Notes: generated from the letters alone by a model not told the origin. Shown: positions 2,056-61,900, numbered from the whole stretch's first letter. The stretch is DNA of 63,543 nucleotides, filler included, from Reclinomonas americana ATCC 50394 (GCA_048213135.1; 4 parts of 2 records of this genome joined end to end with filler, not necessarily neighbours in it); one strand, 5' to 3'. Numbers and translations are program-made.

Positions 2056-4957
2056 ATGTCGCTTGCCCGTGTCAACGTCACCGCCAAGGTGGTGGCAGTC
2101 GCCCTCGCTGTGGCGCTGCTGATCGCCACAGCTCATGCTGGTGAGTGTGTGTGTGTGTGTGCACGCAATGAGAAGAAAACGCATCTCGCTCTTCCTTCTC
2201 TCTCGTTCGACACACTCGCACACGACCTCTCGCTGAATGGGCTTCGTTGATGCACTTCACCACCGTCGCATGTGTGCACCTCTCTTTCCCCGCCACGAAA
2301 ATCTTCTTGTTTGCGTGTGTGTGTGGGTGCGTGCATGTGCGACGACGGTTACATTTTGTCGTCTTACACAGTTTTTCGCGCGCGCTGCAAACATTAACTT
2401 GAATATTTTCCCCCGTGTGATGCAGCTTCCCCAAGCACCGTCTACCTGCGTGCCGGTAACACCAAGACCACCCAGGAGGCCATCACCTTCACCGGCATTT
2501 CCCCGGCTGTGACCGCCTCTTCGGTGTTCACCATCCGCAGCGCCGCCGACTGCAGCGGTGCCGACTCAACCACCACCACTCTCGGTGCCGTCACTCTGAC
2601 GGCCGGCGCCTCGCAGGCCCTGACCATCATCTCCACTGGTGAGACCGGTGCGGCGATTCGCTACGTGTGCCACGATCCCGATGGCGCCGGTGCTGCCATC
2701 AACCAGTCCATTGCCAAGATCCAGATCTGTTGCGTCACCAACTTCCCGCTTTTGTTTACTCTTCTCGCCCACGTGCCTCTAACGCGACACCCACCGCCAC
2801 AGTCTCGGCAACCTCGGCCTCGCCGTCGTCGCTGCCCTCGGGCTCTGCCTCGCTCACCCTTACGATCCTGGGCTCCAACCTGGCGGCTCCGTCGTCTGCC
2901 TTCTTTTACCTGACTGCCACCGATCCGGGAGCCAGCAACGTGTGCAGCAACACTGCCGCGACGGGCACTTCTGTGACCTTTGCTCGCGCCTCGGCCACCA
3001 CCATTGTGTTCACGGTGGCCACGGCGACCGGCTTCGCGGGGTCCAGTGCGCAGGCTGTGACCACGCCGACTGCCACCCAGTTCTGCACTGCTCCGGCTGC
3101 CGCAACCTACTTCCTCTGCGGCTCGTTGCGTTTGTCTTGCTCACGCGACTGTGCAAAGAGAGCGCTTTTCCCACTCTTCTCAACGCTGCTTCTTTGCCTG
3201 CGCAGGTTCCAGAACTCTGGCAGCAACAACCTCATCGGCTCTGTGGGCATTGTCGATCCGTCGGCCATGCAGATCGCCTTCACCAACCCGAGCGTGCTCA
3301 GCTACAACGCCGCCAACACCATCACCATCTCCGATGCTGCCAAGTCGCTGAACAGCTGCACTCGCTTCAAGATCATTCGCCCCGACCAGACTTGCGCCGA
3401 CGATGTCAGTTTCGTTCGCGCGCACAATCTCAGATTGATGCATATGCCACTGTACAACTCTGTGAATCTCATTCGTGTTTCTCTGCCCCTGCACAGCCGC
3501 CTCGTCGGCCACGGCCAACACGAACAACGCGGCTGGCTCGCTCGGCACCGTCAACACCTACACGGCTGGCAGCTTTGACGCCGCGAGCTGCTTTGACTCG
3601 TCGACTGGCTGCAACTTCTTCAAGATCTCGTTCACCCCGCAGCAGCCGGGCGCCTTCCGTCTGTGCGCCAGCCGCAACAACTCGGCATTTGCACTCATTC
3701 CAGGCGAGCAGTTTGTGTCCGGCATGCAACAGGCTTCGGGCACTCCGACACCCATCACGACTGTTGCGTCATTTTTGCCAGCAGACATGTTGACCTATAG
3801 GAATCGATCGCGAGAGTGCTCACATGAATTTGTTATCTCCTGCATGTCAGTTTGGTACCGCCGGCACTGTGCGCACTGCCACCGTCTCCGCCACTTTCCC
3901 GGTCGCCTTCCCCGCGATTCCGCGTATCCTTGTTGGCATCACCAACTACGCTGCTGCTTCCACGGCGGTGGACACTGGTGTGTCGTGCGGCGCCCCGGCA
4001 GTGACTGCCACTGGCTTCAGCACCTCTTGCACCGCCCTCCGTAACGCTAGTGTGGGATTGATGCAGCTGTGTGCGTACCCATGTGCCCACTCGCCGCATG
4101 CGACCCAATTTTAGTGGCCTCACATACTTTTTCAATTGTCTCTCCCACCAGCGTACTTTGCCTTCTACGCGCACACGTCCAAGGCGTTCTCGCTGGACGG
4201 ACAGCGCACCCTCAGCAACGGCGCCGCCTGGAACAGCATTGCCACCTCCAAGTCGTCGACCATTGTTGCGTGAATGAGAACAGCTGTGCATGTGTGGATG
4301 TCATACGATGAAACCTAACCTATTTGCACCGCGCAGAACGTCAGCTTGTCGAATGTGTACGCGTTCGGCGCTGCACCCTCTGTGGCAATTGCTTGGATGG
4401 GCGCTGCCACTCGCCGCTTCGGTACCACCACTCTGGACTTCCGCAACGACATCTTCTACAGCTCGATTGCTTCTGCCTCTCCGTCGAACTTCACCCTGCG
4501 CGGTGTGGTCTCTGGCAACACGCGTGTGGACTCGTTCAGCACGCGCTACGTTGCTGGTCCGTCGGCTGCGGACTCCAAGAACACGAGCGGCTTCATTGTG
4601 CTCGCTGGCGGTGAGTGTCGGTCTGCTGCTGCTTTCTGATTGCCTTGTCGCATGATGAACTGAAGTTGGCTGCTCTCCATGTGTGCAGAGGGCGAGGCCA
4701 CCGCCGCTGGCCCGGTGAACCTGACATTCGGCAACAACCGCCGCCTGCTGCAGACCGGCTTTGTTGCGATGGCTTTCATCCGTGGAATGGACAATGCTGG
4801 TGCCGCTGGCGCCTCTGTGAACGTTGTTGTCCCGGCTGTATCCGGCTACGACACCAACGGCAGCGCCACCGACTGGGAGGGTGTGACGATCATTGCTGCT
4901 TCTCTGAGCAACAAGGTGCAAGTGTCGTACATTGCACTCGGCACCCCGGCTCCGTAA
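2056..4957 (+). CDS. Secreted S/T/A-rich protein with IPT/TIG-like domain and three C-terminal H-type-lectin-like domains (paralogue A)
   Basis: Signal peptide MSLARVNVTAKVVAVALAVALLIATAHA; 9 coding exons splice in frame. IPT-like SASPSSLPSGSASLTLTILGSNL. H-lectin-like TFPVAFPAIPRILVGITNY...VTATGFSTSC...LSYFAF plus two further similar units ending RYVAG and VSYIALG. Stop TAA at 4955-4957. Confidence 0.75.
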
Positions 4958-5063
4958 GCGAAAATGACCATGTGGGCTTGTTGCCTGCCTGCCTGCCTGC
5001 CTGCCTTCAGTCTTGTCTGTTTAGCTGCGCCCTCACTTCTTGCTTCAAGCTTTCGTCTCTTTT

Positions 5064-58900: not shown

Positions 58901-61900
58901 GGACTACCGAACTGCGTCGACAGTGCTGCCGCGTTTGATTCGCATGTGTACGGACAGCTCCGAGCTCGACGTCTTCAAACGAGAAGGTGCGCTTGCCTAC
59001 TGCTGTTGTAGGAAAGAGATTGGTGGGTGTTGACTCGGCTGGTCTCAGGTGCCCCAATTCGCTCACGGCAGATTCTGTTTCGCGAGTGTGGAGTTTCGTT
59101 GTCGGTCATCGCTGTGCGCTCTGCTAGTTGGTGCTGACCGATTGCGATAGATGTACGCGTTCCTGGCACAACTGGCCGCGGCCATCACAAACTCGCGTGA
59201 TGTGGAGGCTCGTGGCGAGGCCGGCAGTGTGGTCACGGATACGCTGCGACTTGTCTTCCGGCTCATGAAGCAGATGAGCAAGCAGTACCCGCTCAATCTC
59301 TCGCTATTCCAGCGTGACCTGCCGCTCCTGCTCGAGTTCTTTGGACGCGATGTCGGCGCCGAGGCCGCCATCATGGAGCTGTTGCGTCCCACAAAGCGAA
59401 GCAGCAATCGTATCCGCGTGCAATGTTCTGACACCACCCCGCCCTCTGCTGTTTCACAGTTTCTCGAGCAACAGCCACAGCCTCGTGCGCCAGATCGACT
59501 ACAAGTACATTCAGTTCTTCATCGATTTGCCTCGTCGGCGGGGCTTCACATTTGAGTTTCGTGTATGTGCGTTGCTGGCATCGTCGCCGCTCATGACTAA
59601 CGATGTGAGTCTGTAAAGGCACTTGCCGTTCCTCATCGAGCTGTGCTCCACGGACGAACCAGTTCGCCGAAACCAGGTGCGTACCCGATCATAGACAGCG
59701 AGCAGCGAGGATGGTGGTGGATTGACGCGTTGTTCCTCGTCGTGCAGGAGTACATTCTCGAGCACTTGGTGATGCCGGATCGCCCGTACGTGATCCTGAC
59801 GCAGATGCGCGGCGACACGGTGTATCTGGTGGCCGATCTTGACGGCTCTCATTTCGAGTCACGTATTGTGGATGTGGCGTGGCCTGGTTGGGCGCCGCCA
59901 CCCATGCGACCAGATGCCACTGCGTCGGGTGAAGCTCTGGCGAACTACGAGCAAGCGCGTGCGAGTTTTGAGCGATCCAGACTGCACGCCGAGTTCTACC
60001 TGTTGCAAATCAACTTGTTCTCCGAGCTGTGCGCAGTTACGTACCCTCTCCTCCTGTGAGGTGCATTATGTTCCTCTCTCCCTCTTACTCACTCTCTGGG
60101 CGATGCAGGGCCGCAATCCACGCGCACAGCAGATCATTTCGCGACTGCTGCCAATCAACGTTGCTGTTGTCGGGTGTGTCACTCATCCGTCATGCGGCTG
60201 ACGTAAAGGACATGTTGCTTAACGGTGGCATGTGCGCGCACAGGCTGATGGAACCGGGACTGCCGAGTCTCGTACGCGCCGCGTTTGACCGCTTGCTGTT
60301 GCATCTGTACGTGGATCGCAACCCGTTCAACAAGATCCAGCTCGTCGAAACGCTGCGGGTCTGTGTCCTCACAAGGTGCTCTCGTGCCTCTCCTTCTCGG
60401 ACTCATCGTATTGTCGCTGGCAGGTGTGGGCCGACATTCCCCTGGAGCCGCAGTTCCATCGCAGTGAGACGTACGAACTGCAGCAGATTCGCCATCACGT
60501 GTCTTCCGGTTTCTCGGTGCTGCCCATCATGAACGACATGCTGAACGCCATTATCTCGTTGCTGGTGAGTCTTGTGTTGCCGCCGTTCACGCCACGCGCT
60601 GCCAGATGGTTGTGGTTCTGAACAAAGCCACACAGCGCTGGAAAGGCGCACTGCGAATGCGCTGGCGCGATCCCAACTTTACCAACTTTCATGTCAACAC
60701 CGTTGCGTGCAGTCTCGTCTGTTGCACACCCTCCGAGTACAGCTCTGAACTCCTTTCTGCAGATGCTACAGCTGCTCATGGCGATGTTGGAGGAAGGGTT
60801 CGTGACACACCGCGGCTACTTGGTGCTGCTCAACGAGACGCTGTGGGACCTGGTGGATGGACGCACTGACGACTACCTCGGTTTATTTCATCTTGTTCGT
60901 CATATCGCGGTGGTGCGCGGCCACTGAGAAGCCCTTGTCATGACAGGTCAACCGGATTCCTTCCGGTACAGTGCGAACGAGAACAACTTGATCATCATGG
61001 TTTGTGCGGCGTAGCGGTCAGCCAGTGTTGCTGCCACACGCATCTCACATGTGAGCAGGAGGTCAAGTGGCGCGCGTGCCGCATCTTGGATCTGCTGCTG
61101 GACATTCAGGTGAACCATCGTGTGGCCAAGTTCCTCTCCTATTTCCGTGGTGGCAATCCGGTCGAGATGGAGCGCATGCTCGGTCGCACGTACATTGTGG
61201 AGGTCAACGACCAGACACTGCCCATTCTCTCCGACCTGATGAAGTACGATTCGGCGCCGCTCAACGCCGTCGCGTCGCGTCTGCTGTTCCGCGTCTTCCA
61301 GTGCGTCCACCTTGTCTCTGCCTCCGTTTTCTTGCAACTCAAGCGTTTCTGGCAGACAACGAATGGAAATGTTTTCGACACTGGGACGCACCACGCTGCT
61401 CGTGTCGCACTCCCTTGTCGAAGCATTCGTGCGCCTGCGCACGGTGTGGGACGAGCTGCGTGTGACACTGGTGGAGCATCCCGACTGGCCGTCGCGGACA
61501 AACATTGTGCAGCAGATTGTGCGCCTGCTGCGCACCCTGCGACACGGTGCGCCCATTCTTATCGGGTTGCCGCACTTTATTGTCTCCGCATTCTCACTTC
61601 TAGGCTCGCTGCCGCGCAGAGATGCAAACCTCGAAGCAGTTGCAGGTGCTGGCCCGCTCATTGTCGTTGCATGACACACTGATCAATGTGCTGAAAGCAC
61701 CAATGTTGCGACTGTTCACATCCCTCGCTCCCCTCTCTTTCCACTTTCCTCACTTTGTCGTTCCTCGCAGTCGCAATCAGCGGCCTGTGCCCGGCACACC
61801 GCTCTTTGAGGCATTCGCCCTGATCTACCAGATCCTCCAGCTGGTGTGTCATTCGCTGCAACGAAGAACGCCTGTTGTATTCGCTACTCACTGTGTCGCG

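Follow-up and report, generated by a model that had tools for sequence, protein, structure and literature searches.

The question raised by this locus is whether a group of spliceosomal introns can carry its 5′ splice-site signal one nucleotide further into the intron than usual. The locus is a 63.5-kb window of Reclinomonas americana ATCC 50394 (GCA_048213135.1), by which we mean the whole stretch of DNA analysed (63,543 nucleotides, joined from at least four contigs), in which many predicted introns begin with GTTGCG, usually GTTGCGT, rather than with the GTGCGT, GTGAGT or GTACGT that open other introns of the same genes. We conclude that donors of the GTTGCG(T) type are genuine, that they occur often and well beyond chance, and that the introns they open are probably U2-type GT-AG spliceosomal introns recognised at their 5′ splice site in a register shifted by one nucleotide.

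Frequency of GTTGCG donors

As a hexamer GTTGCG is not over-represented in the window, the two strands together holding 88 copies against 71 expected from dinucleotide composition. Since this bulk count is close to expectation, the signal resides in where the copies sit, that is, in whether they are intron starts. Introns were predicted with a self-trained semi-Markov gene finder of our own, which combines a periodic Markov coding model with an intron model derived from intron interiors only; a first round, trained on three genes only, gave 11 genes and was superseded. In the donor-agnostic runs the only requirement placed on a donor was GT, and the later runs of this kind added a preference for YAG acceptors at three penalty settings. 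The top donor hexamer in these runs was GTTGCG, which opened 20 of 143, 20 of 157, 17 of 125 and 17 of 112 introns. The hexamer accounts for 88 of the 8191 GT sites of the window (1.07%) and is enriched 12- to 14-fold among the donor-agnostic donors, the binomial p for 17–20 occurrences in 112–157 donors lying between 1e-14 and 1e-16.

The final gene model contains a two-component donor mixture, learnt without supervision from random starts and including exon positions −3 to −1. The components were resolved as aG/GTGcGTgt, with a weight of 0.69, and ct/GTTGCGT, with a weight of 0.31 (the slash marks the exon–intron boundary). This model yields 147 predicted introns in about 60 kb, 101 of an ordinary class (class A) and 46 of a shifted class (class B). 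GTTGCG is the commonest single donor hexamer (27/147), followed by GTGCGT (14), GTGTGT (13) and GTGAGT (9), and T is found at +7 in 22 of these 27 donors versus 15 of the 61 GTTGCG copies that are not donors. GTTGCG donors are present in all four pieces of the window. A preliminary description of this DNA had remarked that shifted and unshifted donors coexist in the same genes, and both classes indeed occur in 17 of the 23 genes with at least two introns. Its further statement that donors with G at +6 are dominant is too strong, however, as about two-thirds of donors retain G at +5 (82 have G at +5 only and 39 at +6 only).

Verified introns

Three genes or gene pairs allow the boundaries to be checked independently of the gene finder. 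Of a set of 22 verified introns, 16–18 were recovered in the donor-agnostic runs and 21 in the final two-class model. The first is a pair of Ser/Thr/Ala-rich tandem paralogues on the plus strand, A at 1819–4957 and B at 5770–9124, whose DNA aligns with a mean column identity of 78%. An H-type lectin domain, slightly below the Pfam cut-off (E 5e-05), is contained in one exon at 3851–4069. At four equivalent pairs of donors (2729/6988, 3125/7374, 3763/7945 and 4265/8446), conservation between the copies ends right after GTTGCGT and restarts right after CAG. Both paralogues translate without stops once seven introns are removed from each, and the donors of each copy comprise four GTTGCGT, one GTTTCG or GTTACG, one GTGCGT or GTACGT, and one GTGAGT.

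The intron positions are common to the two paralogues and the intron interiors have diverged. This bears on the idea that the introns stem from a mobile element, or introner, which multiplies in the genome and keeps GTTGCGT as its invariant terminus, a notion suggested by the fixed 7-mer that opens many short introns of similar length. In an all-against-all comparison, however, intron interiors match one another in microsatellites alone and no k-mer is specific to the class. An introner family is, we believe, a very improbable source of the class.

In the aspartate aminotransferase gene (11923–13933, plus strand), which has eight introns and encodes a complete protein of 407 residues, each splice boundary was slid by up to 12 nt and every in-frame variant was scored, here on a profile of 82 homologues. 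Two of its introns begin with GTTGCGT and a third with GTCGAGT, in which the extra base is C; the outcome of the scans is given in Table 1, along with three ordinary introns of this gene for comparison. Across intron 3 the protein reads EKR/VCACQSL. The best match of the protein, at 59%, is to a transcript from Clastostelium recurvatum (Amoebozoa), a similarity that is not diagnostic of taxon, and a search of metagenomes with an aminotransferase exon as query gave no relative above 62% identity. Protostelium, with a GC content of 42–48% and a median intron length of 46–50 nt (PMC5804921), does not fit the window.

The DJ-1 gene (22585–23463, minus strand) encodes a protein of 203 residues, and its second intron begins with GTTGCGT. 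Its fourth intron has tandem donors 3 nt apart, GTTGTGTGC and, after an added Val codon, GTGTGC, with profile scores of 265.0 and 264.2 bits, respectively; members of the class of the GTTGTG type are ambiguous for this reason. Intron 3 of the same gene (23086–23148, minus strand) ends in AAG, not CAG or TAG, and is the better of two GT..AG solutions by 9 bits.

The preliminary description had named 31 coordinates as GTTGCG intron starts. The letters are present at every one of them (24/24 on the plus strand and 7/7 on the minus strand); 23 are donors in the final model, 11 of these being independently confirmed (two in the aminotransferase, one in DJ-1 and eight in the paralogue pair), and eight are absent from it. 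Forcing the absent sites into the parse has a low cost at 19019 (−2.5), 61705 (−2.3), 15578 (−2.3) and 55128 (−1.6) and a higher one at 50378 (−4.6), 19632 (−7.2), 58775 (−12.1) and 9449 (−21.2), so that 9449 is unlikely to be a GTTGCG donor. The site at 58775 was a donor in one donor-agnostic run and, by eye, links two open frames of an IP3-receptor-like gene, which the final model wrongly breaks. Four GTTGCG donors beyond those 31 are predicted, all on the minus strand, at 11164, 43590, 53414 and 53649. Three shifted variants had also been put forward, and each is present as letters: GTCGAGT at 12378 is confirmed by homology and GTTACGT at 60036 is used by the final model, but GTTAAGT at 32334 is not, 32308 being taken in its place and the forced alternative costing −4.8. 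A claim that all four introns of a SET gene start with GTTGC could not be upheld: no SET domain was found among the open reading frames and exons covered by four Pfam scans, which left out 116 open reading frames of 100–125 residues and most shorter ones.

These results can be set against the suspicion that the boundaries are misplaced, the cuts falling at nearby sites and GTTGCG arising by chance in GC-rich DNA (59% G+C over the window). The bulk hexamer is merely 1.2-fold above its dinucleotide expectation, eight of the 31 sites fall outside the final model, 9449 being very unlikely, and donors of the GTTGTG type are followed, 3 nt further on and in frame, by a GTGTG donor. With GTTGCG, however, there is no other GT nearby, and the profile scans leave a sole GT..AG option. 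Moreover, conservation in the paralogues stops exactly at this motif at four shared positions, and an enrichment of 12- to 14-fold corresponds to p < 1e-13. Misplacement or chance is thus a highly improbable account of the class.

Anatomy of the shifted class

The relationship between the two classes emerges when class-B donors are scored on the class-A matrix for positions +3 to +8. The mean score is −7.3 bits in place, +3.0 bits when the donor is slid by one base and −5.8 bits when it is slid by two, the value for class A on its own matrix being 2.8 bits. The one-base slide improves all 46 class-B donors, which bears out the initial proposal that they are the normal GTGCGT donor with one extra base after GT. 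In the class-B matrix the frequencies are 0.81 for G at +4, 0.74 for C at +5, 0.79 for G at +6 and 0.74 for T at +7, with G at +5 falling to 0.01; in that of class A they are 0.57 for G at +3, 0.38 and 0.37 for C and T at +4, 0.83 for G at +5 and 0.69 for T at +6. The intron-side information is about 5.9 bits in class B (+3 to +7) and about 2.5 bits in class A (+3 to +6), to which class A adds 0.8 bits at −1.

On the exon side, class-A donors have G at −1 in 74 of 101 cases and GTTGCG donors in none of 27, the corresponding figure in the donor-agnostic runs being 1 of 21. The bases found at −1 of the 27 GTTGCG donors are T (11), C (9) and A (7). C at −2 is somewhat enriched, at 15/27 donors versus 17/61 non-donor copies (p = 0.017), a difference that may be biased by the donor model.

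Taking all 147 introns together, T and G are about equally common at +3 (60 versus 59). Among the examples listed, donors that keep the normal register but have a pyrimidine at +3 (GTTTGT, GTTCGT, GTCTGT and GTCCGT) mostly show G at −1.

Beyond the donor the two classes are alike. Median intron lengths are 74 nt in class B and 71 nt in class A, and the phase spectrum is similar. The acceptor is CAG or TAG in 46/46 class-B and 95/101 class-A introns; a CTNAY motif lies within 8–60 nt of the acceptor in 36/46 and 77/101, respectively, at median distances of 19.5 and 19 nt (Mann–Whitney p = 0.73).

U12-type donors are read by perfect pairing without an exon-side signal, and the rigid donor of class B follows a similar logic, so that minor-spliceosome introns with a diverged donor have to be considered. 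No match to RTATCC occurs in any of the 147 predicted donors, however, and the branch-like motif does not set class B apart from ordinary introns, either in kind or in distance; U12-type introns would be expected to have an RTATCCTT donor and a TCCTTAAC-like branch site near the acceptor. A share of 31% would also far exceed that of minor introns in any genome known to us. A minor-spliceosome origin is exceedingly improbable.

How the shifted donors may be read

The class-B introns have GT..AG ends, their removal restores the frame and the alignment with homologues, and the branch-like motif and YAG acceptor are common to the other introns. Their donor block is displaced by exactly one base and does not rely on G at −1. 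On these grounds we consider it probable that they are ordinary U2-type introns with a 5′ splice site read one nucleotide out of register. N/GTTGCGT would then be the normal G/GTGCGT with the GCGT block moved from +3 to +6 to +4 to +7 and a pyrimidine, T or rarely C, at +3. The same U1 small nuclear RNA (snRNA), and later U6, probably pairs with this block shifted by one base. In such a geometry the intron G at +1 would fill the pairing slot usually taken by the last G of the exon, U at +2 would be a single mismatch, U at +3 would pair where U at +2 normally does, and GCGU would follow, the cut being fixed by the single GT. The loss of one pairing position would call for a near-perfect intron-side motif, with nothing gained from the end of the exon, and shifted pairing would account both for +3 being T in nearly all cases and for the need of a near-perfect block after it. 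Which RNA reads the class-B donors, and with what pairing geometry, we infer from the donor statistics.

A different geometry would leave the exon end, G at +1 and U at +2 paired as usual, with the additional U at +3 (or +2) looped out and the GCGT block paired downstream. In form the motif is GT, an extra pyrimidine and GCGT, and C may replace T at +3, as in the verified GTCGAGT at 12378 and the predicted GTCGCGT at 24341. Since the A that reads U at +2 has no pairing partner in C, the extra base should be unpaired in these C+3 donors. Such a bulged register exists in human cells (PMC4856993). In this register, however, G at −1 would contribute a further G:C pair beside G+1, and selection ought to favour it as in class A; yet it is favoured neither in the 27 GTTGCG donors of the final set nor in the donor-agnostic runs. 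Because class B is without this G, we favour shifted pairing and regard the bulge as unlikely.

Alternatively, the donors may be read by a dedicated RNA, a variant U1 (or U6) snRNA with a 5′ end (or ACAGA box) complementary to GUUGCGU, two donor codes thus operating in parallel in the same genes. A sharp, high-information heptamer with no exon-side signal is what such a reader would be expected to produce. The C at +5 of class B and the C or T at +4 of class A, at the frequencies given above, would be consistent with a reader RNA that carries a G, and canonical U1 is not known to have such a G. Set against this, nothing distinguishes the two classes in the 3′ half of the intron, and one RNA acting in two registers explains the one-base slide more simply. 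We therefore treat a dedicated reader as a tentative alternative of low probability, and the fuller proposal, that the same genes carry two parallel 5′ splice-site codes with GTTGCGT read by an snRNA variant such as a U1 paralogue, as doubtful. Were it true, spliceosomal donors would be recognised in three ways, by such an snRNA as well as by those of the U1 and U11 types.

Several considerations weigh against our preferred reading, in which the ordinary RNAs pair with class-B donors one base out of register. It is drawn from a single window. The final class counts come from a self-trained gene finder that leaves out one verified intron of 22 and splits the IP3-receptor gene. The cuts were placed by homology, by comparison of paralogues and by the GT-AG rule; because variants in which both ends are slid equally by 1–2 nt score the same on the profiles, the exact position of the cut depends on that rule. 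GTTGCG copies that are not donors are likewise poor in G at −1 (7/61), and exon-side figures may be biased since the final donor model spans −3 to −1, so that the firm statement is the absence of −1 G enrichment and not its depletion. If U1 pairing were shifted, U10 should face an A at −1, yet A is found there in just seven of 27 GTTGCG donors. Finally, the strong preference for C at +5 (0.74) finds no explanation in canonical U1, which has a pseudouridine at its 5′ end opposite the slot filled by this base. The unexplained C+5 leaves room for an altered or a further reader RNA, and hints at one.

Comparison with known systems

Unusual U1 registers have precedents in human cells. Roca and Krainer reportedly described a shifted (+1) U1 register at atypical human 5′ splice sites in 2009, and Roca et al. 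are said to have added bulge registers in 2012. According to Tan et al. (2016, PMC4856993), shifted and bulge +3 (or +2) registers are proven in cells, the shifted register being one in which all pairs are moved by one position; its test oligonucleotide is ACA/GUCAAGUAU. The same paper gives 54–68 predicted human sites for bulge +2/+3 and 36–51 for bulge +3, and puts all noncanonical registers at 2.1% of human 5′ splice sites, in keeping with the initial remark that bulged registers are a minority in animals.

The human shifted register resembles class B in that G+6 and U+7 act as +5 and +6, there is no G+5, the cut is at GU and the last exon base need not be G. It differs in concerning a handful of sites built on ..AAGU, whereas class B has a GCGU heptamer and makes up about one-fifth to one-third of the introns in the window. 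The human bulge +2/+3 and +3 registers share with class B a single extra nucleotide after GU and a normal downstream block; they are rare, however, whereas class B comprises 46 of 147 introns and is without the −1 G that a bulge should favour.

Rigid GTGCG(T/C) donors are described for Ostreococcus and Micromonas (Irimia & Roy 2008, PMC2483917; Verhelst et al. 2013, PMC3879977). Like the window, these genomes are GC-rich with GTGCGT as the ordinary donor; unlike it, they are reported to be intron-poor or recently invaded by introns, the window being intron-dense. Searches of literature text turned up no shifted GTTGCGT class in either genus. The donor consensus of Entamoeba is GTTTGT, in which T at +3 is tolerated or preferred, as in class B and unlike the situation in animals, plants and yeast. 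GTTTGT keeps G+5 and T+6, however, and so is in the normal register, whereas GTTGCGT has C at +5. The window also holds normal-register donors of this kind, six GTTTGT and five GTTCGT. No description of a GTTGCGT shifted donor class was found in open-licence papers and preprints, supplements excluded.

In animals, no more than a few percent of 5′ splice sites are concerned by shifted or bulged registers, whereas in this window an out-of-register heptamer is the commonest intron start. The GTTGCGT class will be of real interest to splicing biology if its frequency holds genome-wide and RNA confirms the cuts. It would then offer a natural system for asking how the spliceosome fixes the cut with U1 displaced by a base, and in what way U6 and the catalytic core make room for the additional nucleotide. 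In such a genome, gene finders with a single donor matrix will misannotate about one-third of the introns.

Predicted introns and other features of the window

The introns discussed above and further predicted members of the class are collected in Table 1.

Table 1. Verified and predicted introns with shifted donors in the window, with three ordinary introns of the aminotransferase gene
Feature	Coordinates	Strand	Evidence
GTTGCGT intron, H-lectin paralogue A	2729..2802	+	conservation break, open frame
GTTGCGT intron, paralogue A	3125..3205	+	conservation break, open frame
GTTTCGT intron (class variant), paralogue A	3409..3496	+	paralogue comparison, open frame, final model
GTTGCGT intron, paralogue A	3763..3850	+	conservation break, open frame
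GTTGCGT intron, paralogue A	4265..4336	+	conservation break, open frame
GTTGCGT intron, paralogue B	6988..7075	+	conservation break, open frame
GTTGCGT intron, paralogue B	7374..7453	+	conservation break, open frame
GTTACGA intron (class variant), paralogue B	7657..7717	+	paralogue comparison, open frame, final model
GTTGCGT intron, paralogue B	7945..8035	+	conservation break, open frame
GTTGCGT intron, paralogue B	8446..8511	+	conservation break, open frame
GTTGCGT intron, beyond the earlier list	11029..11164	-	donor-agnostic and final gene models
Ordinary GTACGT intron, aminotransferase (comparison)	12001..12287	+	homologue-based gene model
GTCGAGT intron 2, aminotransferase (extra base C)	12378..12443	+	ranks first of 9 GT..AG variants, 8 bits ahead
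GTTGCGT intron 3, aminotransferase, 80 nt	12573..12652	+	sole GT..AG pair keeping full profile score (208 variants, +/-12 nt)
Ordinary GTGCGT intron, aminotransferase (comparison)	12936..13015	+	homologue-based gene model
Ordinary GTGAGT intron, aminotransferase (comparison)	13160..13231	+	homologue-based gene model
GTTGCGT intron 8, aminotransferase, 73 nt	13721..13793	+	best GT..AG; rank 2 of 202 variants; 13 bits over other GT..AG
GTTGCGC intron, Ras-like/U-box gene	19890..19956	+	gene model
GTTGTGTGC intron 4, DJ-1	22729..22804	-	ambiguous: GTGTGC donor 3 nt downstream; Pfam DJ-1 profile continuous across
GTTGCGT intron 2, DJ-1	23165..23233	-	sole GT..AG among 207 variants; within 2 bits of best; 11-homologue profile
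GTTGCGA intron	23625..23692	+	final gene model
GTTGCGT intron, PAPA-1 (INO80B-like) gene	28081..28150	+	gene model
GTTGCGC intron	42595..42674	-	gene model
GTTGCGT intron, beyond the earlier list	43517..43590	-	final gene model
GTTGCGC intron, 278 nt	43648..43925	-	donor-agnostic and final gene models
GTTGCGT intron	44185..44253	-	donor-agnostic and final gene models
GTTGCGC intron	46940..47015	+	gene model
GTTGCGT intron	51121..51189	+	final gene model
GTTGCGT intron	51435..51502	+	gene model
GTTGCGT intron, Yip1 gene	52479..52548	-	gene model
GTTGCGT intron, beyond the earlier list	53343..53414	-	final gene model
GTTGCGT intron, beyond the earlier list	53582..53649	-	donor-agnostic and final gene models
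GTTGCGT intron, IP3-receptor-like gene region	59381..59459	+	gene model
GTTACGT intron	60036..60108	+	final gene model
GTTGCGT intron	60702..60762	+	final gene model

A predicted gene at 19214–21492 (plus strand) combines a degenerate Ras-like segment, below the cut-off of the Pfam Ras family, with a U-box at 20670–20924. A possible exon upstream of it, starting MGNSSS, would be connected through the GTTGCG donor at 19019.

The window contains 16 runs of N. At 16119–16218, 21828–21927 and 49856–49955 these take the form of linkers, each consisting of 44 N, TTAATTAATTAA and 44 N and providing a stop in all six frames. The three linkers identify the window as a pseudo-scaffold in which four or more contigs have been strung together, so that genes flanking a linker may not be adjacent in the genome, and they also explain the apparent enrichment of TAATTA.

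Between 33800 and 39300, about 5.5 kb holds several long open frames of up to 391 residues on both strands and no gene in any model; the open reading frames scanned in this interval gave no Pfam match. No tRNA was found in the window, nor any Rfam family at gathering scores (zero matches, snRNAs included), and extending the Rfam search of the window to E values of up to 1 brought in just repeat-driven microRNA and bacterial small-RNA look-alikes. Beside one of the N runs, at 5117–5190, lies a (TACG)n microsatellite, which accounts both for the over-representation of TACGTA and for the weak microRNA look-alikes.

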